This document shows, one piece after another, positions 8,312 to 37,664 of a stretch of 38,496 nt of DNA. The DNA lies in contig CAYTUX010000145.1 in the NCBI GenBank assembly GCA_964441455.1, forward strand, positions 1-38,496, written 5' to 3'. How positions within the stretch are numbered: position 1 is the first letter of the stretch; the number at the start of each line of letters is the position of its first letter. Source of the DNA: an uncultured Victivallales bacterium. GTDB taxonomy: Bacteria > Verrucomicrobiota > Kiritimatiellia > JAQICX01. The notes under the pieces are model-generated. The model did not search any database. It saw nothing but the letters and a program-made list of their open reading frames with translations, and was not told where the DNA came from. The translations under genes and the position numbers were made by a program.

Positions 8312-8339
8312 GTAGGGGCGACACATGTGTCGTCCGTAC
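8312..8339 (+). repeat. GTAG-type REP element
   Basis: GTAGGGGCGACACATGTGTCGTCCGTAC, 11 nt after the thrC stop. Confidence 0.85.
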
Positions 8340-8343
8340 GGGA

Positions 8344-8373
8344 ATGGGAATTATGGGATATATGGGAATTATG
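8344..8373. repeat. Short 9-bp tandem repeat (ATGGGAWWT x3.3)
   Basis: ATGGGAATT ATGGGATAT ATGGGAATT ATG directly after the REP. Confidence 0.7.
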
Positions 8374-8489: not shown

Positions 8490-8518
8490 TTGTTTCTAAC
8501 ATTGAATTTCAGTATACT
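8490..8518 (+). promoter_or_regulatory. Putative sigma70 promoter of the transporter operon
   Basis: TTGTTT (8490-8495), 17-nt spacer, TATACT (8513-8518), preceded by an A-rich UP-like tract at 8461-8485. Confidence 0.55.
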
Positions 8519-8694
8519 GCAAAGTTTAAATTAGCGAGAAATATTGTTTTTATTTAATTGTCTGATGGGTAGAAGGTTATGATGTATAACCGGTAATCAA
8601 ATGTTTGGATATAAACGTTTTTTTAAGTATGTAAAAGATTTTGATGTGTAAGGATTTTATTTTTGGGAATAGTAGAATAGGGAGTAGCAATTGT

Positions 8695-10740
8695 ATGTCG
8701 TTTAGATCAATCGTTTTAGGTTTAGTTTTAGCATTTTTGTTAGTGTTAGGAGGTCATTTTAATGATGTCTATATAGGTCAGACCTATATGGTCGGCAATC
8801 ATTTTCCTATTTTTATTATTGGGGCACTTCTTCTTTTTGTACTTTTTATAAATCCTATTTTAGGTTTGATAAAGAAAAGCTTATGTTTTTCTAAAGCAGA
8901 GCTTGCAATACTTGTAGTTTTACCATTAAGTGTAGCCGTTGTACCCGGTTCCGGTTTTTTAAGGACTTTCACACCGACTATTATTCTGCCGACAAATTAT
9001 TATAATATGACCCCTGCCTGGCAGAAGAACGACGCAATTTCATATTTACCGGAGAACTTAACAGTTAAGCTTACACCTCAAAATGAAGAAGCAGTTTTGG
9101 GAGGATTTCTTCAAGGTTCTGGTGATAAAGCATCGTTTAATGCAGTTCCATGGCAGGATTGGATTACACCGCTAAAAATATGGCTGCCTCTATTTTTTAT
9201 TGTAATGGTTGCTTTAATATGTTTTTCGATGGTGCTTCATCGGCAGTGGTCATCACATGAGCATTTAGTTTATCCTGTTGCCGAATTTGTGCAGTATATT
9301 ACAGTTGAAGATGATTCTTCCAAGCGAAAGTTTTTCAGAGGTATTACAGCTCAGAAGCTTTTCTGGTACGGGGTCATTCCTGTTTTATTGTTTCATGTTG
9401 TAAATGGTATACATGTTTGGTATCCGAATTTCATTCAAATTCCTCGCAGCCTTAATCTTAACGCCCTTCGCGAACTTTTTCCTAATTTAGCAGTTGTTAA
9501 AGACAACTGGACGATTTTCAAACCTGAAATATTCTTTACAGTAATAGCATTTGCATATTTTTTACCTTCAGATATCACACTTAGTCTTGGTACGACTCAG
9601 CTTATCGGAGCCTGGTTTTCAATTTTTCTGACCACTTATGGTATAACAGTTACAAACAAGTATTTTGGTGCCGGAGAGTATCAGGGATTAGCATTTGGTG
9701 CTTATATTGGTCTGTTCGGGATGATTTTGTTTAATGGCAGGGCATATTATTCCAGGGTAGCAATGGCTGCATTCGGTAAAAAGGATAAAGAAGAAAAGCC
9801 CTTAGAGAAATCATCGGTATGGGGATTCAGGATTTTCCTTATTGCGTCCTTTATTTCAATTGCACTTTTATCCAGCATTGGACTTGGTTGGTTTTATGCT
9901 GCCATATTAATGTTTTTATTTGTTCTTATATTCACGGTAATGAGCAGAATTTGTGCAGAGACAGGTCTATTTTTTATTCAGCCCAACTGGTTGCCTGCGG
10001 GTATACTTGTCGGATTTATCGGAGCTGCGGCAATTGGTCCAACCTGTCTTGTTGTCATGACACTAGTATCTATTATTCTTTGTGTTGATCCTAGAGAGTC
10101 ATTAATGCCATTTATTATTAATGCATTTAAGATTTCAGATAATGTTAAAGTTAAGCGATGTCCTTTGGGAGGAATTTTCATTGCACTTTTAGCAATTTCG
10201 TTGATTGCCGGAACAGTAGTTGTTTTATCTTTGCAATATGGTAAAGGAGCAGGTTTACAGGATGCATGGGCAACGCGAATTGTTCCACAAGAGGTTTTCA
10301 AACAATTTTCATCAGCACTTCAGAATATTTCTGCAGATGGAGTTCTTGATAAATCTATTAATATGGGTACATTTGAACGATTATCACTAATAAAGCCCAA
10401 CAAAACTTTTGTTGGTTTTGCAATTACCGGTCTGACATTCTTCCTTATATTTGCATTTTTGAGGATTCGGTTTTCAAAATGGCCATTTCATCCAATCATA
10501 TTCCTTGTATGGTTTTCTTTTCCTATTGCCATGTTTGGTTTCAGTTTTTTTGTTGGATGGCTTATCAAGACAATGATTGTAAAGCTTGGGGGCGGGGATA
10601 CATATCAGCGCAACAAAGCATTTATGGTCGGTATGGTTGCGGGTGATCTTCTTGGTGGATTAATTTTCATGTTAGTTGGTTACATTTATTATCTGGTAAC
10701 AGGTGACTCACCAATGAGATTTCAGATTTTTCCGGGTTAG
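8695..10740 (+). CDS. Polytopic membrane protein, DUF6785/DUF6784-like (OPT-related putative peptide transporter)
   Basis: About 680 aa with roughly 15 or more hydrophobic segments. Motifs VPWQDWITPLKIW, RQW...EHLVYP, WPFHPI, GWLIK..IVKLGG...Y....FMVGMVAGD recalled for this family. Start placed at ATG 8695 (AGGGAG upstream) rather than TTG 8641. Confidence 0.75.
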   Translation: MSFRSIVLGLVLAFLLVLGGHFNDVYIGQTYMVGNHFPIFIIGALLLFVLFINPILGLIKKSLCFSKAELAILVVLPLSVAVVPGSGFLRTFTPTIILPTNYYNMTPAWQKNDAISYLPENLTVKLTPQNEEAVLGGFLQGSGDKASFNAVPWQDWITPLKIWLPLFFIVMVALICFSMVLHRQWSSHEHLVYPVAEFVQYITVEDDSSKRKFFRGITAQKLFWYGVIPVLLFHVVNGIHVWYPNFIQIPRSLNLNALRELFPNLAVVKDNWTIFKPEIFFTVIAFAYFLPSDITLSLGTTQLIGAWFSIFLTTYGITVTNKYFGAGEYQGLAFGAYIGLFGMILFNGRAYYSRVAMAAFGKKDKEEKPLEKSSVWGFRIFLIASFISIALLSSIGLGWFYAAILMFLFVLIFTVMSRICAETGLFFIQPNWLPAGILVGFIGAAAIGPTCLVVMTLVSIILCVDPRESLMPFIINAFKISDNVKVKRCPLGGIFIALLAISLIAGTVVVLSLQYGKGAGLQDAWATRIVPQEVFKQFSSALQNISADGVLDKSINMGTFERLSLIKPNKTFVGFAITGLTFFLIFAFLRIRFSKWPFHPIIFLVWFSFPIAMFGFSFFVGWLIKTMIVKLGGGDTYQRNKAFMVGMVAGDLLGGLIFMLVGYIYYLVTGDSPMRFQIFPG

Positions 10741-10757
10741 AGTAATCGACATAAAAT

Positions 10758-11162
10758 ATGGAATCATTAGCAAAAAACTGGTTTAAGAAGAAGAGTGTTG
10801 AAGGTCTCACTATAGACCAGATTTATGCGGGCATTCCATTTAAGAATGAGAAAGCAAGGATTACCAAGGTTTCAGATGGAACAGTATTGGATATACCCTT
10901 AAGGAAGCCTAAGGGTGGTTGGAAGATATTGGCTTTGGTTATGCCTTTATCAGATGAACATAGAATATTTTTAGATAAGATAGGTTCTTTGATATATGAA
11001 AGAATAGATGGTATTACTGATGTGGAGCATATTATACGCGATTTTGCAGTTGCTCATCATATCAGTCTGATTGAATCGAGGGAACTTGTTGTTGAATTTT
11101 TGAAAAAATTGTTAAAGCGTGGAGCAATTGTAATTGCTCTTGAGGAAAAGGGTCATGAATAG
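10758..11162 (+). CDS. PqqD/RRE-like small protein
   Basis: 134 aa. C-terminal half LDKIGSLIYERIDG..DVEHII..FA......E....V.EFLKKLLKRGAI fits the PqqD-family winged-helix pattern. Confidence 0.75.
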   Translation: MESLAKNWFKKKSVEGLTIDQIYAGIPFKNEKARITKVSDGTVLDIPLRKPKGGWKILALVMPLSDEHRIFLDKIGSLIYERIDGITDVEHIIRDFAVAHHISLIESRELVVEFLKKLLKRGAIVIALEEKGHE

Positions 11163-12636
11163 AGATAAAGATAAAATTGTCATTGCTAATCAGGTTCGTT
11201 TGAGCACGAAGCGAACCTTACAGATTTCTATAAATGGTATATATTATAGATTGTTCAGGTCATTAGTTACGGTTGCAATTGTTGCCGTCGCCGTTGCCTT
11301 TATGATGTATATGCTTGCCAACAGTCTTATTGGTCGTGCTGTTTATGTGGATTCTCATCAAAATTCTGTTGAGTATAAAGTTTATGATCGGTGGTTAAGC
11401 TGGATTGATCAGGATCTTACCAATGTAGATATCTTTAGAATTTTAGGAAGTTCACCAAAGGATGATTACAGAGTAGAGGCAATTGCCAAATGGGGCAATA
11501 TTGATGACGAAACACTTCAGAAGATTATGCAATTATCTAAGCGTAGCGAACCATATTTTGTCTATTATGACGAACTTTCCCCCGGCAAGAAATTTTTAAT
11601 GGCGGGAGGTATTCCGACCAAAGAATTTTTGAACTACATTGATGATGAAACAAATGCTGCAACATTTAAGGAACGTTTAGAGAAAAGCGGTGGTCTAACT
11701 TTTCCGGGGGAATTTGATGAGCTGGTTCAGCTGTCACACTTTTATGTATCACAGGACGATATATGGCAAAGAATTGCTGTTGGCAGGGCTGAGGCAGCTA
11801 GGTTGCTGAAATCCAAATATAAAGACAAATCTTTTCCTGATTATCTTGCAGATCCTCCGGATGATTTGACATCTGATTTTATTAAGCTCAGTTTTGCGGA
11901 TGAGAATGTTGATTTAGACCAAATTTATGAAAGAGCTAAGATTGCACAGGATTTAAGAGTTTTGAATGATTTATTAAGGCAAGTAAATTTCAGAAAAGAT
12001 TTAGCTCAGGCGATGCAAATTGACAATCTTAATTTAGATCTTGATGCATTTGTGAAGTTTTATGACAACAAAAAAAATCAGAAGAAATTTGCGGAATTAA
12101 TTAAAAAAAATGATATTGATTTTAATATGACTCCGGAACGAGTTTTAGAAATTTTAGAGGATTCACAGCTGAAGAGGAAAGTGATGGAGACAGAGATCAA
12201 GACAGTTAGTTATTCACGAGGGAAGTTTGGATTTAGTATAAGTGTTTTATGGCTGATTGGTGTATCATTTATTGTTTGTATTGTAGGAATTACAAACGCC
12301 ATGTTGATGTCTGTTATGGAACGTTTCAGAGAGATTGCCACAATGAAATGTTTGGGGGCAACGGATTCACTTGTGATGTCAATGTTTGTTTTCGAGTCTT
12401 GTATTCAGGGTGTTGTGGGCGGTTTTTTAGGAGCTTTACTTGCGTTAATTTTAAGTATATCCGTTGCAATGTTTCAGTATGGAGTTTCTGTATTATCCAT
12501 TTTGCCTTATGGTAACTTGGGTTTTTCCACACTGATTGCGATGGCTATTGGAGTGATTTTGGCAGCTTTGGCATCGGTTTATCCGGCATATGTGGCATCA
12601 AGACTTGCCCCTATGGAAGCAATGAGATTAGAATAA
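11155..12636 (+). CDS. MacB/FtsX-family ABC transporter permease with large extracytoplasmic domain
   Basis: N-terminal TM (RSLVTVAIVAVAVAFMM), ~300-aa soluble domain, then the FtsX signature GITNAMLMSVMERFREIATMKCLGA, 3 TMs and YPAYVASRLAPMEAMR. ATG 11155 overlaps the upstream stop. Confidence 0.9.
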   Translation: MNRDKDKIVIANQVRLSTKRTLQISINGIYYRLFRSLVTVAIVAVAVAFMMYMLANSLIGRAVYVDSHQNSVEYKVYDRWLSWIDQDLTNVDIFRILGSSPKDDYRVEAIAKWGNIDDETLQKIMQLSKRSEPYFVYYDELSPGKKFLMAGGIPTKEFLNYIDDETNAATFKERLEKSGGLTFPGEFDELVQLSHFYVSQDDIWQRIAVGRAEAARLLKSKYKDKSFPDYLADPPDDLTSDFIKLSFADENVDLDQIYERAKIAQDLRVLNDLLRQVNFRKDLAQAMQIDNLNLDLDAFVKFYDNKKNQKKFAELIKKNDIDFNMTPERVLEILEDSQLKRKVMETEIKTVSYSRGKFGFSISVLWLIGVSFIVCIVGITNAMLMSVMERFREIATMKCLGATDSLVMSMFVFESCIQGVVGGFLGALLALILSISVAMFQYGVSVLSILPYGNLGFSTLIAMAIGVILAALASVYPAYVASRLAPMEAMRLE

Positions 12637-12651
12637 TATTTAAGGTGTTTT

Positions 12652-13440
12652 ATGAGTAGTGAAATAGATAAAATAGAATATAGTGCGGCTGCCAAGACAG
12701 AAGAGGAACGTGCAGTAATTGTCAGGACTTTACGTCTGATTAAAGAGTATCATATAGGTAGTGTTACTACACAAGCATTACGTGGTGTTGATATGGTTAT
12801 ATATCGCGGAGAGATGATTGCAGTTATGGGACCTTCAGGTTCAGGCAAGTCAACCTTTTTTAATATGATTGGGGGTTTAGATTCTCCGTCTAAAGGAAGA
12901 GTATTTATCGATGAAGTTGATGTAGCCCAGTTAAGTGCAGTGGAGCTTGCATTTTTGAGATGCCATAAGATTGGTTATATTTTTCAGAGTTATAACTTGT
13001 TAAGATATATGACAGCTCTTGAAAATGTTACGGCTCCAATGGTATTTGCGGGTGTAACCGAAAAAGAAGCTCAAGAGCGTGGCATGGATTTGTTAGGGTT
13101 AGTAGGTTTGGCAGATCGCTGGCATCACAAACCAATCCAGATGTCCGGTGGACAGCAGCAGCGTGTCGCAATTGCAAGAAGTATGGCAAACAATCCGACA
13201 ATTCTTCTTTGTGATGAGCCTACAGCCAATCTTGACCTGAAAACCGGCAGGGAAATTTTAGATGTTTTAGTGAAGCTTAATAAAGAGCGCTATGTAACAG
13301 TTATATGTGCCACGCATGATCACAGAATGCTTAACATTTGTGATAGAATGATGTGGATTCGTGATGGTCAGATTGACAGAATTAAGACAAGAAATGAAGT
13401 TAAAATTGAAGTTGGTTCTATTGATGGGGAGTTAGAGTAA
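12652..13440 (+). CDS. ABC transporter ATP-binding protein (LolD/MacB-type)
   Basis: Walker A GPSGSGKS, Q-loop FQSYNL, MSGGQQQRVAIAR, Walker B LLCDEPTANLD, H-loop ATHD. Confidence 0.95.
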   Translation: MSSEIDKIEYSAAAKTEEERAVIVRTLRLIKEYHIGSVTTQALRGVDMVIYRGEMIAVMGPSGSGKSTFFNMIGGLDSPSKGRVFIDEVDVAQLSAVELAFLRCHKIGYIFQSYNLLRYMTALENVTAPMVFAGVTEKEAQERGMDLLGLVGLADRWHHKPIQMSGGQQQRVAIARSMANNPTILLCDEPTANLDLKTGREILDVLVKLNKERYVTVICATHDHRMLNICDRMMWIRDGQIDRIKTRNEVKIEVGSIDGELE

Positions 13441-13442
13441 GA

Positions 13443-16400
13443 ATGATAAAATATTTAAACAAAATTTTCAGTAAGTTTATTGTGATAGGGATATTATTTG
13501 GTCTATCTTCTTTTGCACAGGAAGTAACTGTTGATGAAGACAAAAGTAATTTTTTGGAGGGAATTCAAGTATTAACCTCCACACCTCATCGCCTTGGTGG
13601 AACCGAAGAGTTTAATTCAGCAGCAGATTATATTGTTGCAGAGCTGAAGAAAGGCGGATATACGGATGCAAACATAATTGAACAGACATTCTTTTTGCCG
13701 CAAATGCTGACGGAAGCGTCAATTACAGTTGGAGGCAAAGAGTTACCTCTCTATGGTGTACGAGCAAACTTATGGCAGGGATCTTCTTTGGAAAACAATC
13801 AGGTTGAGGCTGAATTGTTTTATGCAGGAGATGGTTCGCCGGAAGCATATGGAGACATTGATCCATTGGGGAAAATAGTATGTTTAAATTATGCTACAGC
13901 ACGAAGATGGCGTGATGCATTTGCTATGGGAGCCAAGGCAGTTATTTTTGTTGATCAGGGTGATACCCCACAGGAATTTGCACGTTATTCACCAATTACA
14001 GCTAATCTTCCGCGTTTTTATTTAACCCGTGATGATTTCAATGCTTTAGGGCTTGAAGATGGAGTTAATAAGGCAACATTGAAATCAAAGCCTGCATGGA
14101 AACGTTTGACTTCAAGAAATATTATTGCATGGTTACCCGGAACCGACCCTGTCTTTGATTTGGAAAAAGAAGAGGTAGCAATTCTGACAGCACAGCTGGA
14201 TAGTTTTGGTGATGTTCCTGAACTTGCAAATGGAGCAACCGGTGCAGCCAACAGCATAGCATTATTGGATTTAGCAAAGAAATTTCAGAATGATAAACCA
14301 AAAAGAAGCATAATGTTTGTTTTTCTTGGCGGAGAGGGGCGTCTTCTTACAGGTTCTCAAAATCTTTATAATGCAATTTTTAGAGATGAGACATTTAAAG
14401 GTTCCAGAATAACACACTCTGAATATTTAGAAAACTATATTAAGGAACAAGAGTTTATAACACAGATGAGAAAAGTTTTGAGGGCAAAGACTTTCTTTGA
14501 TGAATTTACATCTGTTTCCAGACAGGTACTATCTAAACTACGTGATTATACCCAATCTGAAAGTGGTGAGTATACAGATTTAATTAGTGAAGCCAATCTT
14601 TTGAAGATTCGTCTTGAAAAACAGGGAGATGAAGCCAATGCGGCAAAACTGGAGAATATTGAGAATCAGATTGAAGAGTGGAATACTGAAAAGGGAAAAT
14701 GGGACTCTTTAAGAAGAGCAATTGGTAAGCAGAAGCTTGATGAATCTGTTTCAGAGCAGTTAGATACTGTTATTGAGATGATTGATGAGAATCTTGAAGC
14801 CAGATATTATGAAATAGAAAAACTTATAGCTCAGAAAAAGCAGGCAAAACAAATTGCAGAACTTTTAAAAGACAAACATATTATATTCAATCTGTCTATG
14901 GATTTTTCAGGAGACGGACCACTTTGGGGATTCTCCCAGTGGGACTCTGAAGATTATCTTCCTCAGGCGTATTACAACACAGTGGGATATTATGTTAGTG
15001 TGTTTTCCGCGATAGAGAAGACTGCAGATGAACTAGGCTCCAACATAAAATATCTTCAGAAAGGCACAACAAAGATTCGTCTTGGACCTGATATGTTCTT
15101 TCCTGGAAAGAAGATGTATTCCGGCATGATTGCAGCTCGATTCGGTTTGTACGGGCTTCGGGTCGGAACATGTAGTGATGCACTTGTTTATCAGGGACAC
15201 CCTGACGACACATATCTGAACTGTAATGTTGACAAAATTTATGATTTCAGTCAGGATTTTTATACATATGCGAAAACTATGTTTTCAAGTCCAGAGTTCT
15301 CATTACGTCACAGAGTACGTAGAATGGTATCATTTTTAGATTATAAATGGGATGGAGAGCGAGTAAGCGGCAGTACCGCAATGACACGTTCAAAGGGAAG
15401 TGCAATTGCCAACACACCTGCTGCTGGAGCCATGCTCGGTATTGCTTCCCCTAAGATGTACATGGCCGGTTATGATTTGGCGGTCAGAACAGTTGTAGAA
15501 CAGAATGGTTCCTTTGTTCTCGGTCCGGTAGATTACACTAAGCTGCCCAAATCAGATTGGAATATTGTTTTGTTTGACGACGATGGTAAAGTTAATAGTT
15601 GTAATGAGCTTTTAACAACTTTTAATCGAGTTGATATGTTCCCTTGCATATTTAAATCTGTAGTTACAATGTCGCCCCCAAGTTTGACAGGTGCAAAGAC
15701 ATTAATTCTCAATGCAGCAAATGACGGAGGTTTCAGGAGTCAGGATAGTTTTGCGATGGAGACACCTTTTGTGACCTCATCGTTTATGCCTGACTCAGCA
15801 CATGGGGTGAAATATGTTAACAAATTTGGAATGCTGTTGATTAATTCCACAGAAAAAAAACCTTTGGGAGCAGGTTTTCCCGTTGCCGGAAATTTTAATT
15901 TTTCAACCACAAAAGCAACTGCACAAGATAAATTTTCAATAGATGAAAGTCGTTTAGATATTCTAAGAAAGAAAAGAATAACCAATGACTCACTAGAGTG
16001 GCTGCAGGGATTGGCTTCGACAGCACTTGAAAAGGCAGATACTGCAAAAAATATTGCCGCAAAATATGCAGAATATAATACTGCAAATCTTCTTAACAAG
16101 AGGATTTACGCACCGGTTCTTACATCAATGAACGATCTGGTTAAGGCTGTTGTTATTCTTATGATACTTATGATACCATTTGCTTATGCCCTAGAGCGAT
16201 TACTTATTGGTACACCGCATATATATAAACAGATTGGATGGTACTGTTTCTTCTTTATCGTGACATTTGTAATTCTATATAATGTTCATCCGGCCTTTGC
16301 AATTGCGACCGAGCCAATTGTTATTTTTCTGGCATTTTTGATTATAATTCTGTCTTCAATGGTTATTTTTATTTTGTTGAGTCGATTTAAGCAGGAAATC

Positions 16401-18236
16401 AAAGCAGTTCAGGGTATGGAGGTTACAGTACATACAGCAGATGTTTCAAGGTTTAGTACTATTGTTGCGGCAATTGGAATGGGTATCAGTACTATGCGTC
16501 GACGTCCGATGAGAACATTTCTGACAACAATAACAGTTATTTTATTAACATTCAGTATTTTAAGTTTTGCGAGTTTTGATGCACAGGGTGGTATTTTCAA
16601 GCGTCATGTAGGTTCATCTTCAAGTGTTAAGAGTATATTTCTGCATCATCCGGTTTGGAAAACTCTTTCAAACAGAGTTACCGACATTTCCAAGCATATA
16701 ATGAGGGGTATGGGAACAGTTACTGAAAGATATTGGCTTTCAGCGATTGATGCAGCCAGTGCACAGATTTTTTGTGTTCCAATTGCAGACCAATCAGGCG
16801 AGAAGGTTGTTAAACTTGATGCACTGGTCGGACTTGAAACGATGGATGTTTTGGGTCAGCCACAGCTTTTGGCGGCTTTTAAAGGTGATTCTTCATTTGA
16901 GATGGCGGAAGATGCGATATATTTTACAGAGACTACAGTTGAAGCTTTAGGTGTTAGCCCGGGAGACAAGGTTAATGTTATGGGATACACATTCACCTTT
17001 GCCGGAGTATTAGACCAAAACAAGCTAATCAGATTTATTCAGATTGATGATACACCTATATATCCAATTGACTACAATGATGAGTCAATGCAGAAGGATA
17101 CAGGAATGAAACTTTCAGATGAGGGTGATAATGAAGATCTTGACGCTGATTCATCTTTTTTGCCTTACCTGAACTCCTCTGTTGTTGCTTTCGTAAGCTC
17201 AAAAAGAGCAAAAGAACTGAATGGGCGTTTAGTTGCCATTAGTGTGTATCCGAATAAAGGAGTTGATATTGCACCTATTGCCGAAGAGCTTGCAAGACTG
17301 GCTCCTGCACCGGTTTATGCAACACTTGATGATGGAATATATAGACTGTATTTTACAACAATGCTTGCTACTTCCGGGCTGCAGAATATAATTATACCAA
17401 TTATTCTTGGCGGATTAATTATTTTCGGTACAATGTTAGGTTCTGTTACGGATAGAGAAAAAGAGATTTACACATTTAGTGCACTTGGTCTTGCACCGGC
17501 ACATATTGGTATGTTATTTTTTGCCGAGTCATCTGTTTACGCCGTAATAGGTGGTCTTGGCGGCTATATATTTGCCCAGTTAGTGGCAATTTTCGCCTCA
17601 TGGCTGGCCACTTTCACATCAATTCAGATTCCGGAAATGAACTACTCTTCGACAAATGCAATTTTTGCGATTTTAGTTGTTATGGCAACAGTTTTATTGA
17701 GTACAATATACCCTGCATATAGAGGAGCCAAAAGTGCTAATCCCGGAGTTGCCAGAAGTTGGAAAACACCAAAGCCTGACGGTGACAGATGGATATTTAC
17801 ATTCCCATTCACCGTTAGTGAATATGATATAACAGGTGTTATGAGTTTTCTGCTTGAACATTTCAACAACTTCAGTGATTGTTCTCTAGGAATATTTCTT
17901 GCAGAGAACAACAAAGTTACAGCAGATGGAAAACAGCTTACCTTGCAGAGCAATATTGCAACAGCACCATTTGACTTGGGAGTTACACAAGAGTTTAGAA
18001 TTACAAGTGTGCCAAGTGAAATTGAAGGTGTTGATGAAGTGCATATTTCAATTATAAGAGTAAGTGGTACACAAGGAGATTGGCGCAGAACAAACCGGCC
18101 TTTCATTAATGATTTGCGGAAACAGTTTTTGATATGGAGGTCTTTGCCTCCTGAAACAATGGAAGATTACAGAAAGAAAACCCTTGTCATGCTTGGAAGG
18201 GCAAAAGCAGATAAGGAGGTAACAAATAATGGTTAA
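13443..18236 (+). CDS. Fusion protein: signal peptide + PA/M28 peptidase-fold ectodomain + multi-TM region + FtsX-like permease + soluble C-terminal domain
   Basis: Signal-like N-terminus (...SSFA|QE). M28-like HRLGGTEE..AADYI, RNIIAWLPG, TAQLDS, KRSIMFVF. PA-like GKIV...GAKAVIF. FtsX signature GTMLGSVTDREKEIYTFSALGLAP and STIYPA. Confidence 0.82.
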   Translation: MIKYLNKIFSKFIVIGILFGLSSFAQEVTVDEDKSNFLEGIQVLTSTPHRLGGTEEFNSAADYIVAELKKGGYTDANIIEQTFFLPQMLTEASITVGGKELPLYGVRANLWQGSSLENNQVEAELFYAGDGSPEAYGDIDPLGKIVCLNYATARRWRDAFAMGAKAVIFVDQGDTPQEFARYSPITANLPRFYLTRDDFNALGLEDGVNKATLKSKPAWKRLTSRNIIAWLPGTDPVFDLEKEEVAILTAQLDSFGDVPELANGATGAANSIALLDLAKKFQNDKPKRSIMFVFLGGEGRLLTGSQNLYNAIFRDETFKGSRITHSEYLENYIKEQEFITQMRKVLRAKTFFDEFTSVSRQVLSKLRDYTQSESGEYTDLISEANLLKIRLEKQGDEANAAKLENIENQIEEWNTEKGKWDSLRRAIGKQKLDESVSEQLDTVIEMIDENLEARYYEIEKLIAQKKQAKQIAELLKDKHIIFNLSMDFSGDGPLWGFSQWDSEDYLPQAYYNTVGYYVSVFSAIEKTADELGSNIKYLQKGTTKIRLGPDMFFPGKKMYSGMIAARFGLYGLRVGTCSDALVYQGHPDDTYLNCNVDKIYDFSQDFYTYAKTMFSSPEFSLRHRVRRMVSFLDYKWDGERVSGSTAMTRSKGSAIANTPAAGAMLGIASPKMYMAGYDLAVRTVVEQNGSFVLGPVDYTKLPKSDWNIVLFDDDGKVNSCNELLTTFNRVDMFPCIFKSVVTMSPPSLTGAKTLILNAANDGGFRSQDSFAMETPFVTSSFMPDSAHGVKYVNKFGMLLINSTEKKPLGAGFPVAGNFNFSTTKATAQDKFSIDESRLDILRKKRITNDSLEWLQGLASTALEKADTAKNIAAKYAEYNTANLLNKRIYAPVLTSMNDLVKAVVILMILMIPFAYALERLLIGTPHIYKQIGWYCFFFIVTFVILYNVHPAFAIATEPIVIFLAFLIIILSSMVIFILLSRFKQEIKAVQGMEVTVHTADVSRFSTIVAAIGMGISTMRRRPMRTFLTTITVILLTFSILSFASFDAQGGIFKRHVGSSSSVKSIFLHHPVWKTLSNRVTDISKHIMRGMGTVTERYWLSAIDAASAQIFCVPIADQSGEKVVKLDALVGLETMDVLGQPQLLAAFKGDSSFEMAEDAIYFTETTVEALGVSPGDKVNVMGYTFTFAGVLDQNKLIRFIQIDDTPIYPIDYNDESMQKDTGMKLSDEGDNEDLDADSSFLPYLNSSVVAFVSSKRAKELNGRLVAISVYPNKGVDIAPIAEELARLAPAPVYATLDDGIYRLYFTTMLATSGLQNIIIPIILGGLIIFGTMLGSVTDREKEIYTFSALGLAPAHIGMLFFAESSVYAVIGGLGGYIFAQLVAIFASWLATFTSIQIPEMNYSSTNAIFAILVVMATVLLSTIYPAYRGAKSANPGVARSWKTPKPDGDRWIFTFPFTVSEYDITGVMSFLLEHFNNFSDCSLGIFLAENNKVTADGKQLTLQSNIATAPFDLGVTQEFRITSVPSEIEGVDEVHISIIRVSGTQGDWRRTNRPFINDLRKQFLIWRSLPPETMEDYRKKTLVMLGRAKADKEVTNNG

Positions 18237-20232
18237 GAATATGTTAAAAAGACCACGTAAGGATGATCTCGCAGAATATAGAAACCTAATGGATGTTCCG
18301 GATACATTTATTGATGGTTTCAACATCAGATCTTTACTTGGAGCAGTTTTTGTTGGTATGATTATGGTTCCTGGTGCAATGTATATGAGTTTACTTGCAG
18401 GTCAGGGTATTGGTCCTGCAGCACAGTGGGTGACAGTAATTCTGTTTATAGAAGTTGCACGAAGAGCACATAAGACATTACATAGAGCAGAACTGTATGT
18501 TTTATTTTATCTGGCCGGTGCTGTTATGGCTGTACCATTTTCCGGATTGTTGTGGAATCAGTTTTTTGTTCAGAGTAATGCAGCAAAGGCAGCGGGGATT
18601 GCAGATTCATTACCTTTATGGTTTGCACCTCAAGATCCTGATGTTCTTGCACAGAGAACGTTTTTTAATCTACATTGGGTTGCACCTATTGCAATTATCA
18701 TCTTTGGTCTTATAATGGGTCGTATAAATCAGTTGATTCTCGGATATGGTCTTTTCCATTTAACAAGTGATCTTGAAAATCTTCCATTTCCAATGGCCTC
18801 AGTTGGTGCTTCAGGTATTGTCGCTTTGGCAGAAGAGTCAGAGCATTCTGTTGATGCTGGAGAGAAGGAGGTTGGCTGGCGATGGCGAGTTTTCTCAATG
18901 GGCTCAGGTATTGGTATGTTATTTGGTCTTATATATATGGGATTACCGACAATATCAGGAGCCTTTCTTTCCAAACCATTGATGGCTTTTCCAATTCCTT
19001 TTCTTGATTGGACACATAAGACCGGAGCTTTTCTCCCTGCAGTTGCAACAGGTATTTCATTTGATCTCGGACAGTTTGTTATTGGTATGGTTATGCCTTT
19101 CTATGCAATGGTCGGTAGTTTCTTTGGTTTGATTGTAACTTTTGTATTGAATCCGATTCTTTATAAGCTAGGTTATCTGCCAAGTTGGAATCTTGGTGAC
19201 AACACAATAACAACATTGTTTAAAGACAACATGGATTTTTATTTCAGTTTTACTATGGGCTTGTCATTTGCAATTGCTATTGTCGGTATTATTCAGGTTG
19301 TTATTGCAATGAGAAATGCCAAGAAAAAAGGTGACGTAATGATATCAGTCAGGGAAGAACTGGCTTCAAAGGATTTGAAATCGCGTGGTGACTTCAGAAT
19401 GATTTGGGTTGTTATTGCATATATTCTGACGACATCATCATATATTCTTGTTTCCGGTTATCTTTTGAACTGGCATAAAGGTGCAATTATTGCATTTTCT
19501 GTTATCGGTTTTGTTTATTCTCCAATTATGACATATGTTCGAACAAGGCTTGAAGGTGTCATTGGTCAGACATTTGCAGTTCCGATGGTACTGCAGGCTG
19601 CACGTATTCTTAGTGGTTTTCAGGGAGCAGAAATCTGGTTTGTTCCCGTTCCTCAAGCTGAAGTTCAGACATTTGCAGTTAAGTATCGGGAGGCCGAGCT
19701 TACGGGTACAAGTTTTAAAAGTATATGGAAAGCACAGATTTTCTTGATTCCTATTATCATTGTCGGGTCAATTTTCTTTTCTAACTTTATCTGGGGTATG
19801 GCACCGATTCCATCTCCACGTTTCCCGTTCACAGAAATGATGTGGGAGTTTACAGCCATGAACGATTGTATTATGTTTTCATCTACAATGGGTGGTTATT
19901 CACAGTTTGAAGCTGCATTTAAGCCATTGCTTATTTTTAGCGGCATAGGTATCGGAGTCGTTACATTTGCTCTTTTCTCGGGGTTAGGACTGCCTCTGGT
20001 ATTTGTTTATGGTGCCGTTCGTGGTCTGGGGCAGACGTGGCCGCATACAGTTATACCTCAATTTTTAGGTGCTTTAGTCGGTCGTTTTTACTTTCAGCCT
20101 CGTTTCAAAGAAAACTGGCGAAAATATATAACAGTAGGTGCAGCCGGATTTAGTTGCGGAGCTGGGTTAATTACTATTTTAGGTGTTGGTTTTACATTTT
20201 TGAAGAATGCTGTTATTCAATTACCATTTTAG
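18229..20232 (+). CDS. OPT-superfamily-like polytopic membrane protein (putative peptide transporter)
   Basis: 667 aa with about 15 hydrophobic segments and an OPT-like motif ENLPFPMA. Strong RBS AAGGAGG at 18213-18219. Overlaps the upstream gene. Confidence 0.72.
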   Translation: MVKNMLKRPRKDDLAEYRNLMDVPDTFIDGFNIRSLLGAVFVGMIMVPGAMYMSLLAGQGIGPAAQWVTVILFIEVARRAHKTLHRAELYVLFYLAGAVMAVPFSGLLWNQFFVQSNAAKAAGIADSLPLWFAPQDPDVLAQRTFFNLHWVAPIAIIIFGLIMGRINQLILGYGLFHLTSDLENLPFPMASVGASGIVALAEESEHSVDAGEKEVGWRWRVFSMGSGIGMLFGLIYMGLPTISGAFLSKPLMAFPIPFLDWTHKTGAFLPAVATGISFDLGQFVIGMVMPFYAMVGSFFGLIVTFVLNPILYKLGYLPSWNLGDNTITTLFKDNMDFYFSFTMGLSFAIAIVGIIQVVIAMRNAKKKGDVMISVREELASKDLKSRGDFRMIWVVIAYILTTSSYILVSGYLLNWHKGAIIAFSVIGFVYSPIMTYVRTRLEGVIGQTFAVPMVLQAARILSGFQGAEIWFVPVPQAEVQTFAVKYREAELTGTSFKSIWKAQIFLIPIIIVGSIFFSNFIWGMAPIPSPRFPFTEMMWEFTAMNDCIMFSSTMGGYSQFEAAFKPLLIFSGIGIGVVTFALFSGLGLPLVFVYGAVRGLGQTWPHTVIPQFLGALVGRFYFQPRFKENWRKYITVGAAGFSCGAGLITILGVGFTFLKNAVIQLPF

Positions 20233-20275
20233 AAATTTAAAGATAAGGAGTAAGGGTTTCACCTTATAATATACT

Positions 20276-21013
20276 ATGAAAGAACAAGATACAATAATCT
20301 CTATAAAGGATGTGAACAAACAATTTAATCTACAGGGTAATACTGTATATGCTCTGAAAGATATATGTCTTGATATTTTTCAGGGAGAATATATTAGTGT
20401 TATGGGACCATCAGGTTCTGGTAAATCAACTTTGTTCAATATGATTGGAGCTTTAGATAAACCGACTTCAGGCTCTGTAAGTATTAAAGATGTCGAACTT
20501 ACGAGTTTATCAAGTTCACAGCTTTCATATTTCAGGAACAACTACATTGGTTATGTGTTTCAGTCCTTTAATCTTCTTCCTGCCATGTCAGCACTGCATA
20601 ATGTTTCACTTCCAATTCTTCTGACAGGAGTTTCACCGGCAGAAGCAGAACATAGGGCAAAAGAGGTTTTGGATCAGGTTGGATTGGCAGATCGAGTCTA
20701 TCATAGACCTGATGAGCTTTCCGGCGGGCAGCAGCAGCGTGTTGCCATTGCAAGAGCTCTTGCAAATGAACCTATGATTATTCTTGCAGATGAGCCTACA
20801 GCCAACCTTGACTTGAAAACAGGTGAGCAGATTATTGAGATTCTATCTTCATTAAGTCGGGAGAAGGGTGTTACAGTTGTGACAGCTACTCATGACCATA
20901 AGATGCTTGCATCAAGCGACAGAGTTGTCTGGATTAGTGACGGAAAAATTGCTCGTGTTGAAAGACGAGAAGACCTTAATATCAAGGTTGGTACAATTGA
21001 TGGTGAAGAGTAG
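20276..21013 (+). CDS. ABC transporter ATP-binding protein (LolD/MacB-type), second paralogue
   Basis: GPSGSGKS, FQSFNL, LSGGQQQRVAIAR, ILADEPTANLD, ATHD. Confidence 0.95.
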   Translation: MKEQDTIISIKDVNKQFNLQGNTVYALKDICLDIFQGEYISVMGPSGSGKSTLFNMIGALDKPTSGSVSIKDVELTSLSSSQLSYFRNNYIGYVFQSFNLLPAMSALHNVSLPILLTGVSPAEAEHRAKEVLDQVGLADRVYHRPDELSGGQQQRVAIARALANEPMIILADEPTANLDLKTGEQIIEILSSLSREKGVTVVTATHDHKMLASSDRVVWISDGKIARVERREDLNIKVGTIDGEE

Positions 21014-21029
21014 TTCGTTTATTGCTCAT

Positions 21030-21053
21030 AAACGGGCTATGCCCGTTTTTTTT
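21030..21053 (+). terminator. Rho-independent terminator closing the transporter operon
   Basis: AAACGGGC-TAT-GCCCGTTT hairpin running into a T8 tract. Confidence 0.8.
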
Positions 21054-21125
21054 GTGACCAAATAAAAGAGATAAATAGGAACGAGAAATATATTGCTCAA
21101 AACAGATGTGATTTGAAAGGAAAAT

Positions 21126-23485: not shown

Positions 23486-24910
23486 ATGAAGAAAATGGCA
23501 AAAGCAAAAGAAGTTTCATTTGATTGGTCACCCAGGAATGGTTGGGATGGTTTAACAAAACGTGAAGAAAAAGTTTTGGAGAAATATTGTTCTGAATATA
23601 TGGAGTTTTTAAGCAAAGCAAAGACAGAACGTCTTGCATACGATGAATCTGTAAAGCTTGCTGAAGCTTATGGGTATATGAATATATCCTCAAAAAAGAA
23701 GCTTAACCCCGGCGACAAAATATATATTGGTTTCAATGGTAAGACAATCATGCTTATGAGCATCGGCAGGACACCTTTAACTGATGGTTTAAGAATTGTC
23801 GGCGGGCATACAGATGCACCTCGTTTGGACTCCAAACCTGTTCCGCTGTATGAAGACGGCGATGTTGTTCTTTTAGATACCAGTTACTATGGCGGAATCA
23901 GAAAATATCATTGGGTATCCTCAACTCTTGCAATACATGGCGTAGTTATCAAGCAGGATGGTTCAAAAGTTGATATTGCAATCGGCGAAGATATAACCGA
24001 TCCAATCTTTACAATAACAGATTTGCTTCCACATCTTGCCGCAAAGCAATCAAAAAAACCTTTAGCAACAGCAATCACAGGCGAGGGGCTAAATGTTCTT
24101 GTCGGCAGCAGACCGATTGACAAAAAATCAGATAAAAATAAACATCCTATTAAGGACAATATACTAAAGATTCTTAATGAAAAGTATGGCATTACGGAAG
24201 AGGATTTTGTAAGTTCAGAGCTTGAAATTGTTCCATCCGGACCGGCAAGAGAAGTTGGATTTGACAGATCCATGATTGGTGGATACGGACATGACGACAG
24301 GGTGTGTGCATATGCAGGATTAAGAGCAGCCCTTGATATGGAAGAGATTCCGGAATACACCTCTGTTGTGCTTATGTGTGACAAAGAAGAGATTGGTTCA
24401 GAAGGTAATACCGGTATGAACTCATTTTTCTTTGAAAATGCAGTTGCAGAAGTTCTTGCTCTTGAAAATTCAAAGTCAACCAATCTTAACGTTCGTCGCT
24501 GTCTGAGTCGCTCAAAAATGTTATCTGCAGATGTCTGCTGTCTGCATGATCCTAACTATCCTGATGTAAGTGCACCAAACGGAAATATGGCTAAAATGAA
24601 TCATGGATGTGTTTTAGTTAAATATACAGGTAGCAGAGGCAAAAATGGTGGTTCAGATGCCGGTGCAGAATTTGTCGGAGAAATACGAAAAATATTTAAT
24701 GACGCAAAAGTTTGCTGGCAGACAGGATTGATTGGCAAGGTTGATGAAGGTGGGGGTGGTACAATCTCTAAATTCATGGCAAGATATGGGATGGAAGTTA
24801 TTGATTGTGGAGTAGGGCTTTTTGGAATGCATTCGACATTTGAGGTTGCCGGTAAAATTGATATTTATATGACATACAAAGGATATAAAGCGTTTCTTGA
24901 AAACAAATGA
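23486..24910 (+). CDS. M18 family aminopeptidase (ApeA/aminopeptidase 1-like)
   Basis: KTER, GHTDAPRL, YYGGI, GHDDRVC, DKEEIGS, SADV, GGGGTI, MHS: full set of metal-ligand motifs. The start may be at 23495. Confidence 0.92.
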   Translation: MKKMAKAKEVSFDWSPRNGWDGLTKREEKVLEKYCSEYMEFLSKAKTERLAYDESVKLAEAYGYMNISSKKKLNPGDKIYIGFNGKTIMLMSIGRTPLTDGLRIVGGHTDAPRLDSKPVPLYEDGDVVLLDTSYYGGIRKYHWVSSTLAIHGVVIKQDGSKVDIAIGEDITDPIFTITDLLPHLAAKQSKKPLATAITGEGLNVLVGSRPIDKKSDKNKHPIKDNILKILNEKYGITEEDFVSSELEIVPSGPAREVGFDRSMIGGYGHDDRVCAYAGLRAALDMEEIPEYTSVVLMCDKEEIGSEGNTGMNSFFFENAVAEVLALENSKSTNLNVRRCLSRSKMLSADVCCLHDPNYPDVSAPNGNMAKMNHGCVLVKYTGSRGKNGGSDAGAEFVGEIRKIFNDAKVCWQTGLIGKVDEGGGGTISKFMARYGMEVIDCGVGLFGMHSTFEVAGKIDIYMTYKGYKAFLENK

Positions 24911-25039: not shown

Positions 25040-26248
25040 ATGAACAGACCACATGATTTATTGGAATGGGAGTGCTTGGTTCCTGAAAAAGGAAATTTTG
25101 CATTTGGATATTATGATCGATTTGCTTGGAATCAATCGGATACTCTGCATCTTGCACTCAAAATGCCGCAGCAGATCAGACTTCCTGAAGTTGATGAAAC
25201 TGCGGAATTGGGTTACATCAAGGACAAGAAATTTGTTAAATTGACCGAGACAAAAGCCTGGTGTCATCAACAAGGATGTATGTCGGTCTTTTTAAATGAT
25301 TCCGAAATTATCTATAATGATGTTGATAATTCAACCGGAAAAGTTATTTCCAAAGTATATAATTTAGATACTCATGAAATTAAGCCATGGGGTGATATGA
25401 TTTATACAATATCCTTGGACTGCACAAAAGTTGCAACACTTGATATTGGACGTATTCCTCGTAGAGGCTACAGTTATGCTTCATCACCGTTGCCTGAAAC
25501 AGCTTTGCCTGTAAATCCAGCAAACGAAGGTCTTTTCATTGTTGATGTTGCAACAAAAGAGAAAAGGCTGATTTTAAGTTATCAGCAGTGTATTGATATG
25601 CACCCTTATCCTTGGGATAAAGAGGGGCAAATGTTCTGGATGAACCATGCAATCTTCAATTGCGATGGAAGCAAGATTCTTGTACTATTCAGGCATACTT
25701 TAAATACCTCTGAACGTTCCGGTGCATGGTGGAGAACGCATATGTTTACTCTTGATGTTGATGGTGGAAATGTCAAGTGTGTGCTTCCTGATGTTTTCTG
25801 GAAAAATGGTGGAATTACTCACCAGATCTGGGGAAGTAAGCCAAACGATGTTCTTGTTGATGCCAACTGGACACATACAGGAAATCATCAGGTGATTGTT
25901 GATGACAGAACTTTTCCTGATAGTCCTGCTCAATTAGTTTCCAAGGGGGCAAATAGGGGAGCACATCTTTTGTACTCTCCTGACGGCAAGTGGATAGCAG
26001 GGGATTCTTATCCTAATGATGGGAAACAGACGTTGACGCTGACCAAGGTTGAGACTGGTGAGTGTAAGATTATAGGTGTTTTCAATCATAATACTCCGAA
26101 TGTTGTAGGGGATATGAGGTGCGATCTGCATCCTAGATGGAATCATGCTGGTGATTACCTGACTGTTGATACCATCCATAAAGGTCCAAGAAAGATTTAT
26201 GGATTATCAATGAAGAAAGTATTCGAGTCATATTCCACACTCATATGA
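25040..26248 (+). CDS. Beta-propeller protein, TolB/oligogalacturonate-lyase-like, function unknown
   Basis: FGYYD, AW..QQG, NH..FN.DG, H..YSPDGKWI..DSYP and RCDLHPRW blade motifs. No evident signal peptide. Confidence 0.7.
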   Translation: MNRPHDLLEWECLVPEKGNFAFGYYDRFAWNQSDTLHLALKMPQQIRLPEVDETAELGYIKDKKFVKLTETKAWCHQQGCMSVFLNDSEIIYNDVDNSTGKVISKVYNLDTHEIKPWGDMIYTISLDCTKVATLDIGRIPRRGYSYASSPLPETALPVNPANEGLFIVDVATKEKRLILSYQQCIDMHPYPWDKEGQMFWMNHAIFNCDGSKILVLFRHTLNTSERSGAWWRTHMFTLDVDGGNVKCVLPDVFWKNGGITHQIWGSKPNDVLVDANWTHTGNHQVIVDDRTFPDSPAQLVSKGANRGAHLLYSPDGKWIAGDSYPNDGKQTLTLTKVETGECKIIGVFNHNTPNVVGDMRCDLHPRWNHAGDYLTVDTIHKGPRKIYGLSMKKVFESYSTLI

Positions 26249-37334: not shown

Positions 37335-37664
37335 ATGATTGAATCAATAGTAGGGTCAAAAAATGCTGAAAGAGTATTGTTGTATATATTTGCTAGAGAA
37401 CAAGGCTATACAAGAGAGATTGCCAGATTTTGGGATGCTGATGCCGACTCTATACATAAACAATTGGTTAGGCTTGAGCGAGATGGTGTACTATTCAGTA
37501 AATCTCTAGGAAAAACTGTTGTTTATAGCTTTAATCCTCGTTATGCATTTTTAAAGGAGTTAAAAGCACTTTTGAATAAAGCATTATCTTTTTATCCCAA
37601 AGATGAACAGGATAGTCTTCTCATTGTCAGACGTCGTCCAAGAAGAAAGGATAAACCTTTATGA
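37335..37664 (+). CDS. Winged-HTH (ArsR-like) transcriptional regulator / putative antitoxin
   Basis: 109 aa. ERVLLYI...GYTREIAR......SIHKQLVRLERDGVL.S...GKTVVYSFNP is a wHTH pattern. RBS GGAG upstream. Confidence 0.8.
   Translation: MIESIVGSKNAERVLLYIFAREQGYTREIARFWDADADSIHKQLVRLERDGVLFSKSLGKTVVYSFNPRYAFLKELKALLNKALSFYPKDEQDSLLIVRRRPRRKDKPL

Follow-up and report, generated by a model that had tools for sequence, protein, structure and literature searches.

The window analysed in this work, a 38,496-nt stretch of DNA corresponding to contig C145 (CAYTUX010000145.1) of an uncultured Victivallales bacterium, contains at positions 8695-21013 of the + strand a block filled by seven co-directional open reading frames (ORFs), g1 to g7, which almost certainly constitute one functional unit. 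The engine of this unit is very probably a type VII (MacB/LolCDE/FtsEX-fold) ATP-binding cassette (ABC) transporter; it is associated in the block with two OPT-like polytopic membrane proteins and with a small cytoplasmic protein of the PqqD/RRE type. The best overall explanation, which we favour tentatively and with slightly less than even confidence, is that of a self-contained and co-inherited inner-membrane system, in which the type VII core, the OPT carriers and the RRE operate as proposed below. An earlier, sequence-only reading of the same DNA had pictured the block as one complex, in which an ATP-driven receptor captures a peptide or polymer outside the cytoplasm and hands it to OPT-like channels; taken as a whole, this interpretation is partly supported. 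The components belong to known kinds, and type VII ABC systems and OPT carriers have each been well studied; no known system joins both, and it is the combination that had not been characterised previously.

Co-inheritance of the seven genes

From g1 to g7 the ORF junctions measure +17, -29 (-8 if g3 starts at ATG 11155), +15, +2, -8 and +43 nt, in agreement with the co-directional genes and gaps of 43 nt or less described in the sequence-only reading. The frame of g1 opens at TTG 8641; its Pfam match runs from ATG 8695, before which stands a GGGAG motif, and the likelier start of g3 is ATG 11155, preceded by GAGGAAAAGG. The gene order and family names that had been proposed are borne out by Pfam for g1 to g5 and g7, and at the level of the fold for the OPT-like g6. 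The genes, and the main parts of the giant protein encoded by g5, are as follows.

8695..10740, + strand: g1, DUF6785+DUF6784 polytopic membrane protein, 681 residues (Pfam)
10758..11162, + strand: g2, small cytoplasmic protein of the PqqD/RRE type, 134 residues, its 3' end overlapping the start of g3 (Pfam, family profile)
11134..12636, + strand: g3, FtsX/MacB-type permease, 500 residues, four transmembrane (TM) helices (Pfam FtsX, hydropathy)
12652..13440, + strand: g4, ABC ATPase 1, lineage A1 (ABC_tran, tree)
13443..18236, + strand: g5, the giant, 1597 residues (Pfam M28 and FtsX, eight TM segments)
13533..14432, + strand: g5 residues ~31-330, PA-domain M28 aminopeptidase-like scaffold without the zinc ligands (alignment to 2ek8)
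16128..16397, + strand: g5 residues ~896-985, three extra TM helices, highly conserved, ahead of the FtsX module (hydropathy, PDLC01991)
16509..17732, + strand: g5 residues ~1023-1430, FtsX/MacB-type module composed of TM1, a periplasmic domain and TM2-4 (AlphaFold2 (AF2) model, Foldseek, VIA)
17745..18233, + strand: g5 residues 1435-1597, cytoplasmic C-terminal domain (CTD, or tail), conserved and of unassigned family (conservation)
18229..20232, + strand: g6, polytopic membrane protein of predicted OPT/YSL fold, 667 residues, with an 8-nt overlap with the end of g5 (AF2 model, Foldseek)
20276..21013, + strand: g7, ABC ATPase 2, lineage A2 (ABC_tran, tree)

The phyletic distribution of the system was followed in 301 sampled genomes of the phylum with three queries, namely the g6 profile (E <= 1e-20), Pfam DUF6785 (E <= 1e-10) and the CTD of the giant alone (E <= 1e-5). 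All three are found in an identical set of 44 genomes, and none of them in the other 257. Among 301 Planctomycetota, the phylum of a Phycisphaerae metagenome-assembled genome (MAG), g6 and DUF6785 occur in 46 genomes each, 45 of which are common to both; the mismatches are one genome with a weak g6 match only and one with DUF6785 only. For synteny, a g6 scan with one genome per species gave 55 loci, labelled Kiritimatiellae, Lentisphaeria/Victivallales, Verrucomicrobia, Phycisphaerae, other Planctomycetota and one Brocadiaceae MAG, which were mapped with hidden Markov models (HMMs) built from same-class neighbourhoods of the giant. Full-length g5 homologues (E <= 1e-45) are present in 20 of 40 relatives, and in same-class relatives the same families recur around them. 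The giant lies immediately 5' of g6 in 54/54 loci; in the 35 well-flanked loci, those in which the flanks of g6 reach 9 kb or more on the upstream side and 0.9 kb or more on the downstream side, the order FtsX-ATPase-giant-OPT-ATPase is kept in 33, PqqD is present in 31 and DUF6785 in at least 16, a count that is a lower bound because this gene usually sits just beyond the 10-kb flank. Apart from the F7 family described below, no further family is recurrent in the flanks of the 55 loci, the maximum being 4/55. The co-occurrence of the families as a block, which the sequence-only reading had put forward as a check on itself, is therefore upheld: they do not assort independently, and the pattern extends to Planctomycetota. 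The rival view that ordinary ABC exporters and OPT carriers, two of each, have become adjacent by chance can invoke the fact that each family is common on its own; phyletic patterns identical in 301 genomes and near-identical in 301 more, together with an order fixed across classes and phyla, leave it exceedingly improbable and close to refuted.

The system is carried in one to five copies per system-bearing genome, and a second, rearranged paralogous type, with a giant of 1750-1900 residues and a short FtsX of 230-360, is made of the same families. Because its distribution is patchy (about 15% of sampled genomes) and several copies are often present, the system is accessory rather than housekeeping, and the same features argue against a core role in the envelope or in division. 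It is spread over Kiritimatiellae, Lentisphaeria, Verrucomicrobia and Planctomycetota and represented by more than 1400 clusters at 50% identity. No characterised counterpart emerged from literature searches on the system and its DUFs, nor from scans of PDB, NCBIfam and PADLOC, as had been anticipated. In line with its earlier description as self-contained, neither a binding protein, a MacA-like adaptor or TolC, a two-component system nor a maturase or other enzyme for ribosomally synthesised and post-translationally modified peptides (RiPPs) is present in the window.

Two observations on individual loci can be added. A second copy of the system, with its genes rearranged, is present in the window's own genome on the 7.2-kb contig C146 (L091:1-7238), in the order giant (cut by the contig end)-OPT-like-FtsX (a 359-aa frame)-ATPase-ATPase-PqqD. 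In locus L039 (Kiritimatiellae MAG, SLKS01000169.1), which offers almost 10 kb upstream of g6, no FtsX, ATPase-1 or PqqD was detected 5' of the giant; this may be an exception to the common order.

The ABC engine and the giant permease

Permeases of type VII ABC systems, which act by mechanotransmission, are distinguished by an FtsX-type four-helix TM domain with an extracytoplasmic domain between TM1 and TM2; both g3 and g5 have this architecture, and g4 and g7 provide cognate ATPases whose ATP-binding and hydrolysis motifs (Walker A, signature, Walker B DE and H-loop) are all intact. The permease g3 matches Pfam FtsX with E 4.6e-16 and has TM segments at 44-62, 369-387, 427-445 and 462-480; its profile finds in the PDB the entry 5xu1 (9e-22), MacB (8e-19) and also LolC/E, LolF and YtrF, in each case only over residues ~320-500, and the loop of about 300 residues between TM1 and TM2 has no recognisable relative in this search. 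The ATPases match ABC_tran with E 9e-33 (g4) and 3e-34 (g7). In a tree of the ATPases all 43 A1 sequences fall into one 45-leaf clade (support 0.77) that contains 0 of the 48 A2 sequences, and identity amounts to 0.67 and 0.64 within the lineages and to 0.49 between them; A1 (g4) is always found between FtsX and the giant and A2 (g7) always after the OPT-like gene. By sequence, g4 and g7 represent two separate orthologous lineages.

Among known members of the class, LolCDE resembles the block in that it also combines two different FtsX-fold permeases bearing periplasmic domains with cytoplasmic ATPases, and LolC/E is among the best fold matches of g5. LolCDE, however, uses one ATPase in two copies where the block has two distinct lineages, it lacks the pseudo-peptidase, the extra TM helices, the tail domain, the OPT partners and the RRE, all of which the block has, and it is essential, whereas the block is patchy. 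The NCBIfam equivalogs LolC/E, LolD, FtsX, FtsE, MacB, DevC and DarD are all matched far under their cut-offs: lolCE reaches 48.1 bits against 362, LolD 217 and 234 against 308, FtsX 29-37 against 225-255 and FtsE 192 and 204 against 265; for g4, the nearest models are LolD, DarD and MacB, each below its own cut-off.

The giant g5 consists of a signal or anchor, about 870 periplasmic residues, three extra TM helices, a cytoplasmic linker, the FtsX module and a cytoplasmic tail of 160 residues. Hydropathy gives eight TM segments, the extra helices lying at 899-917, 936-954 and 959-977 (899-977 overall), and the periplasmic domain of the FtsX module, between TM1 and TM2-4, measures about 270 residues. 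Pfam recognises Peptidase_M28 at 226-310 (32.6 bits against a cut-off of 21.3) and FtsX at 1318-1430, and a profile of 22 giant sequences matches the PA-domain aminopeptidases 2ek8 (E 9.6e-18, positions 34-319) and YwaD (6hc6, 1e-13) in the PDB and, more weakly, nicastrin (1e-6) and the transferrin receptor (4e-3). Opposite HHDS, GANDDASG and GAEE of 2ek8, which we take to be the zinc-ligand and catalytic motifs (His, bridging Asp and Glu-Glu), the family consensus reads pLDs, gareAan and gear, and g5 itself QLDS, GATGAANS and GGEG; the H.D motif is kept in 2/22 giant sequences, the Asp in 0/22 and the Glu-Glu in 0/22. This loss of the three M28 motifs compared upholds the pseudo-peptidase status that had been proposed for the giant, and with the metal ligands lost, the M28 scaffold would bind rather than cut. 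Nicastrin and the transferrin receptor similarly reuse an M28 scaffold as a membrane-anchored, non-catalytic binding module; they are eukaryotic and belong to unrelated complexes, and by sequence the giant is closer to the bacterial PA-domain aminopeptidases.

The FtsX module in the C-terminal half of the giant has the type VII fold in its model. The AF2 model of g5 801-1597, from an alignment of 51 sequences, has a pLDDT of 85.7, and its Foldseek matches (E 2e-9 to 1e-4 for the whole set) include LolC/E (9rld, 2e-9) and MacB (2.5e-9), with probability 1.00, as well as Spr0695, HrtB, YbbP, YtrF and BceB (5.5e-5). With VIA, YtrF scores Z 17.3, FtsX Z 15.2 (root-mean-square deviation (rmsd) 4.3 over 184 residues), LolC Z 13.6 and entries for FtsEX-EnvC Z 13.5-14.4; for the periplasmic region of MacB (3ftj) Z is 11.6, with an rmsd of 3.8 over 173 residues. 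Within the family, the mean frequency of the top residue is 0.80 in TM1, 0.71 in TM2-4, 0.70 in the extra helices, 0.66 in the cytoplasmic linker and 0.60 in the tail; the periplasmic parts are the most variable, with 0.33-0.48. A constant engine carrying a variable recognition head would fit, because the periplasmic parts are the least conserved and two to five paralogous systems per genome are common.

These resemblances raise the question as to whether the giant is instead a device of envelope maintenance, a fused counterpart of FtsEX-EnvC or LolCDE that by ATP-driven mechanotransmission activates or extracts an envelope component (a hydrolase, a lipoprotein or a lipid), with the OPT proteins recycling the fragments. 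FtsEX regulates EnvC, a catalytically dead protein of peptidase fold, and a type VII ABC engine joined to a peptidase-fold protein without catalysis is what the block shares with it; the FtsX, FtsEX-EnvC and LolC/E matches of the g5 model, and the weak likeness of the CTD to a lipid-binding fold (see below), point in the same direction. On the other hand, EnvC is a LytM (M23) protein in its own right, whereas the block has its PA-M28 scaffold on the permease chain itself; the block is not universal and has no evident amidase partner, and no hydrolase is recurrent beside the system in the 55 loci. A presence in 44/301 and 46/301 genomes with one to five copies is unfit for a core envelope function, and the lolCE and FtsX scores stay far below equivalog level, so that this role is quite unlikely.

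Resistance to antimicrobial peptides of the BceAB/VraFG kind, in which the periplasmic domains would recognise a peptide that the OPT proteins import for degradation, is compatible with the BceB match, the patchy multi-copy distribution and the variable periplasmic domains. We consider it improbable: no two-component system or sensor kinase is present in the window or recurrent in the 55 loci, and BceB, which works with BceRS, has a different, single-chain architecture of ten TM segments, where g5 has eight and g3 four.

The CTD of the giant is found in 1415 representatives (50% identity, E <= 1e-3), mostly proteins of 1450-2100 residues, and in 150/150 of the matches listed it lies within about 40 residues of the C-terminus. 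It has no match in Pfam, NCBIfam, PADLOC or PDB sequences (none below E 0.7 in the PDB), and in the AF2 model its predicted order is beta-alpha-beta4-alpha2-3. VIA returned a weak similarity to 1vjh, a protein of the Bet v 1-like (helix-grip) type (Z 7.7, rmsd 3.2, 112/120 residues), a value below what is meaningful for this tool in a tail that was barely sampled, the whole-model search having barely tested regions outside model residues 16-99 and 205-635. If this match is real, the Bet v 1-like fold would suggest a pocket for a hydrophobic ligand on the cytoplasmic side.

The relatives of the giant's membrane module are already catalogued in a census of CARF proteins, which is the sole prior label. 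The PADLOC model PDLC01991, 'CARF_m8--CARF_LolE_TM', matches g5 872-1475 with E 2.8e-53 and five other giants with 7e-39 to 2e-60, and PDLC01990, 'CARF_m8--CARF_Beta-galactosidase_LolE_TM', matches the same region. The CARF_m8 models presumably stem from Makarova et al. 2020 (Nucleic Acids Research 48:8828). On the strength of the PDLC01991 matches the giant could be a membrane effector that is gated by a nucleotide and related to antiviral signalling. We regard this as very improbable: the coverage of the model is limited to the three extra TM helices and the FtsX module, homologous to those of the CARF_m8 proteins, the CTD alone is unmatched, and no clustered regularly interspaced short palindromic repeats (CRISPR), cyclic-oligonucleotide-based anti-phage signalling (CBASS) or other defence gene is present in the window or recurrent in the flanks. 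As regards a CARF domain in the tail itself, PADLOC gives no match to the CTD, the PDB sequences give none below E 0.7, and the predicted strand and helix order is not the alternating one of a Rossmann-like domain, the structural search having barely sampled this part.

OPT-like carriers, the PqqD protein and the proposed mechanism

The Pfam OPT family (PF03169) is matched by g6 below threshold (18.8 bits against a cut-off of 25.8); 24 of 43 members of the g6 family match it at E <= 0.01, the best at 4.4e-14. The AF2 model of g6, from a 43-sequence alignment, has a pLDDT of 80.2 and a pTM of 0.82. In Foldseek it matches the PDB entries 7wsr/7wst of barley YS1 with E 1.7e-10, probability 1.00 and TM-scores of 0.63/0.69, the runner-up being at E 5e-3 with a TM-score of 0.11; no other fold is near, and g6 is therefore predicted to adopt the OPT/YSL fold. 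YS1 surfaced in the fold search only, the profiles of g6 and g1 finding nothing at E <= 1 among PDB sequences, and its identity with g6 is 15% for the same overall fold. The structure 7WSR and the elevator-like mechanism of YS1 are attributed in bioRxiv 10.64898/2026.08.27.747422 to Yamagata et al. 2022. Matches to g6 comprise at least 3187 clusters at 90% identity, under source names such as 'OPT/YSL family transporter' or 'peptide transporter', and one of the matching records is labelled Chitinivibrionales, that is, outside the Planctomycetes-Verrucomicrobia-Chlamydiae (PVC) group. Characterised OPT/YSL proteins are uptake carriers that act alone and are proton-coupled; in contrast, g6 is locked to the giant both in gene order and in phyletic pattern.

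The second carrier candidate, g1, passes the Pfam thresholds of both DUF6785 (PF20581; E 2.2e-85, 287.5 bits against 25) and DUF6784 (PF20580; E 8e-20, 71.3 bits against 26.4), and its strongly hydrophobic segments number at least 11. It aligns with the g6 family over about 190 columns (hhalign probability 93.6%, E 2e-7), and on this profile comparison g1 and g6 are distant paralogues. The same-genus DUF6785 copy is 84% identical by family clustering and HMM search, a value that tblastn put at 45%; at E 1e-5, tblastn misses most DUF6785 homologues. DUF6785 copies often outnumber those of g6 and of the giant, for example four against two (G184, G176, G296, G500 and G562 are among the genomes noted). 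The Planctomycetota genome G421 has four DUF6785 genes and no g6 at E <= 1e-20, and G327, of the same phylum, a weak g6-like match and no DUF6785. Because of the copy excess and of G421, DUF6785 proteins may also act outside the system.

For the contact between g6 and the giant, a complex prediction of g6 with g5 885-1050 and g5 1300-1440 scored 0.25 against a mark of 0.32, in a run without controls and with three chains and one protein split, unlike the calibration set; this score weighs neither for nor against binding. Two long open frames that had the look of natural giant-OPT fusions, of 2324 aa in G285 and of 1685 aa in G595, were rejected: both are shadow frames without stops that overlap the gene of the giant in another reading frame. 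In G011 (G011:C3:~201000-209800) a giant-like C-terminal part lies in a 3902-aa open frame, which may also be a shadow frame.

On the cytoplasmic side, g2 scores just above the cut-off of Pfam PqqD (24.1 bits against 23.4), has no TM segment by hydropathy and remains far under the cut-offs of the NCBIfam lasso and PQQ equivalogs. A profile of its family (20 sequences) matches the lasso-peptide PqqD chaperone 9x90 (E 9.3e-6), the PqqD protein 3g2b (2.5e-3) and TbiB1 (0.09). The usual ligands of RRE domains are cytoplasmic precursor peptides; the g2 family differs from them by a conserved N-terminal extension with an AVP..N motif and by its partners, since neither a conserved small upstream ORF (the precursor) nor an enzyme family (the maturase) recurrent in the flanks of the 55 loci was found.

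Another soluble protein, F7, of about 300 residues, is an eighth member of the system in most genomes and is absent from the window. It is encoded upstream of the PqqD gene in 27 of the 35 well-flanked loci (e.g. L062:1227-2120, L035:1338-2225) and occurs in 34/44 system-bearing genomes, sometimes on another contig, and in 0/257 others; in some loci, such as L025 (487 aa) and L027 (478 aa), it is fused to PqqD. F7 has no Pfam, PDB or NCBIfam match and no similarity to the giant in sequence searches, and almost no invariant polar residue pointing to an enzyme. It was found neither in the window's own genome at E <= 0.1, in an assembly that is 87% complete, nor in the same-genus locus.

In the mechanism that we propose, the membrane core would most likely be a heterodimer of g3 and g5, powered by two different ATPases, one g4 and one g7. 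The pseudo-M28 head would capture a peptide, or a chelate resembling one, in the periplasm. As in other type VII systems, mechanotransmission would then set the periplasmic domains in motion when ATP is bound and hydrolysed, and the head would close on its cargo. The cargo would be presented to the OPT-fold carriers g6 and g1, which would carry it across the membrane, and g2, with or without F7, would receive it or gate the cycle on the cytoplasmic side. An uptake device is favoured because three of the modules, namely the dead aminopeptidase on the outside, the OPT fold in the membrane and the RRE inside, have relatives that handle peptides. We infer the heterodimer, the ABC-OPT contact, the substrate class and the direction, and the parts of this proposal do not stand equally firm: a peptide-type cargo is evenly balanced, import as described is a tentative choice that we put clearly below that, and a single complex that obligately couples a type VII mechanotransmitter, bearing the dead aminopeptidase as its fused receptor, to OPT carriers of the elevator type and a cytoplasmic RRE, so that ATP-driven capture and ion-coupled translocation of a peptide-like cargo are split between folds, is possible and on the unlikely side.

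Several points weigh against this proposal. We know of no type VII ABC system that drives import, nor of one with a partner of secondary-carrier fold, and to our knowledge a role of an RRE in uptake is without precedent. The contact between the parts is among the inferred elements; two permeases and two ATPases could also form two separate homodimeric transporters. The 'peptide' nature of the cargo is not secure because OPT-family substrates include metal chelates, and g6 itself falls below the Pfam OPT threshold, as noted above. Moreover, the CTD, the ~300-residue loop of g3, g5 ~480-880 and F7 are without assigned fold or function.

The opposite direction has to be weighed as well. In an export or extrusion system, the RRE, with F7, would hold a cytoplasmic peptide, the OPT-fold proteins would transfer it to the outer face of the membrane, and the type VII ABC part, in the manner of MacB-type pumps for RiPPs and toxins, would expel it from the membrane or the periplasm. 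Wherever the substrate of a type VII ABC system is known, the system works outward; both ATPases lie near DarD, the darobactin export ATPase (E 6e-61 and 4e-63, below the NCBIfam cut-off); RREs normally hold precursor peptides on the cytoplasmic side of the membrane; and the fusions of F7 with PqqD hint at a module for processing or holding in the cytoplasm. The block also shares with MacAB-TolC and DarBCD-type RiPP export a MacB-fold permease, LolD/MacB-like ATPases and a MacB-like periplasmic domain; in MacB, however, the ATPase is fused to the permease, whereas in the block the ATPases are separate. There is no precursor-like conserved small ORF upstream; a maturase, a MacA-type adaptor and an outer-membrane channel are neither in the window nor recurrent in the 55 loci, a finding that covers linked genes, unlinked partners elsewhere in the genome not having been searched for. 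Characterised OPT proteins import, and the near absence of enzyme-like invariant residues in F7 speaks against processing. Export is thus unlikely, although it is a stronger contender than the envelope and resistance roles.

If the parts do form one complex, ATP hydrolysis would be coupled to a secondary-carrier fold in a new way, and a first function would be at hand for DUF6785/DUF6784, for a family of large proteins of 1500-2000 residues and for an RRE outside RiPP biosynthesis. The uptake systems of the host bacteria, which are abundant polymer-degrading anaerobes, are poorly understood. The system is testable by genetics and biochemistry in cultured carriers, and the 55 loci include one from an isolate record, 'Verrucomicrobia bacterium LW23' (L037).

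Regulatory signals and neighbouring genes

The block is bordered by two candidate transcription signals.

8490..8518, + strand: promoter-like element upstream of g1, TTGTTT - 17 nt - TATACT (sequence reading; kept in L034)
21030..21056, + strand: intrinsic terminator, AAACGGGC-TAT-GCCCGTTT (hairpin 21030-21048) followed by the T run TTTTTGTGAC (hairpin scan)

The terminator announced after the block is confirmed by a hairpin of eight pairs, five of them G-C, with a 3-nt loop. For the sigma70-like promoter, the hexamers and their spacing are present as described and are kept in the same-genus locus L034, in a leader that is otherwise poorly conserved; a generic promoter scan, on the other hand, gave 42 sites against 43.4 +/- 8.5 in shuffled sequence, hence no excess, and the site at 8490-8518 is not among them. 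Upstream of g1, a search for precursor peptides found chance small ORFs only, none of them conserved with the same-genus locus, and an Rfam scan of the window for riboswitches gave 0 matches.

The flanks of the block are of housekeeping character. The upstream side includes thrC; downstream lie genes for an ARMT1-like phosphatase, an MBL-fold protein and an M18 aminopeptidase, followed by fusA, dnaX, ybaB, recR and aro genes, and the rest of the 38.5-kb window also holds ilvD, a radical-SAM methylthiotransferase-like gene, proS and hisS. The source assembly comprises 2.9 Mb in 298 contigs. The M18 aminopeptidase gene (23486-24910), ordinary-looking, is 2.5 kb 3' of the block, and its adjacency is probably a coincidence because M18 does not recur beside the system in other loci. 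Just 3' of the thrC stop and of a GC-rich hairpin (~8316-8334), a tandem repeat of ATGGGAATT (x3.3) occupies 8344-8373, within the 395-nt AT-rich leader of g1; it is absent from the same-genus locus. Three ORFs, at 25040-26248 (402 aa), 37335-37664 (109 aa) and 37661-38002 (113 aa), have no Pfam match at E <= 0.001. Finally, a single 517-aa ORF at 34084-35637 combines shikimate kinase (SKI) with 3-dehydroquinate synthase, an aroK-aroB fusion that forms part of an aroE / aroKB / aroC run.

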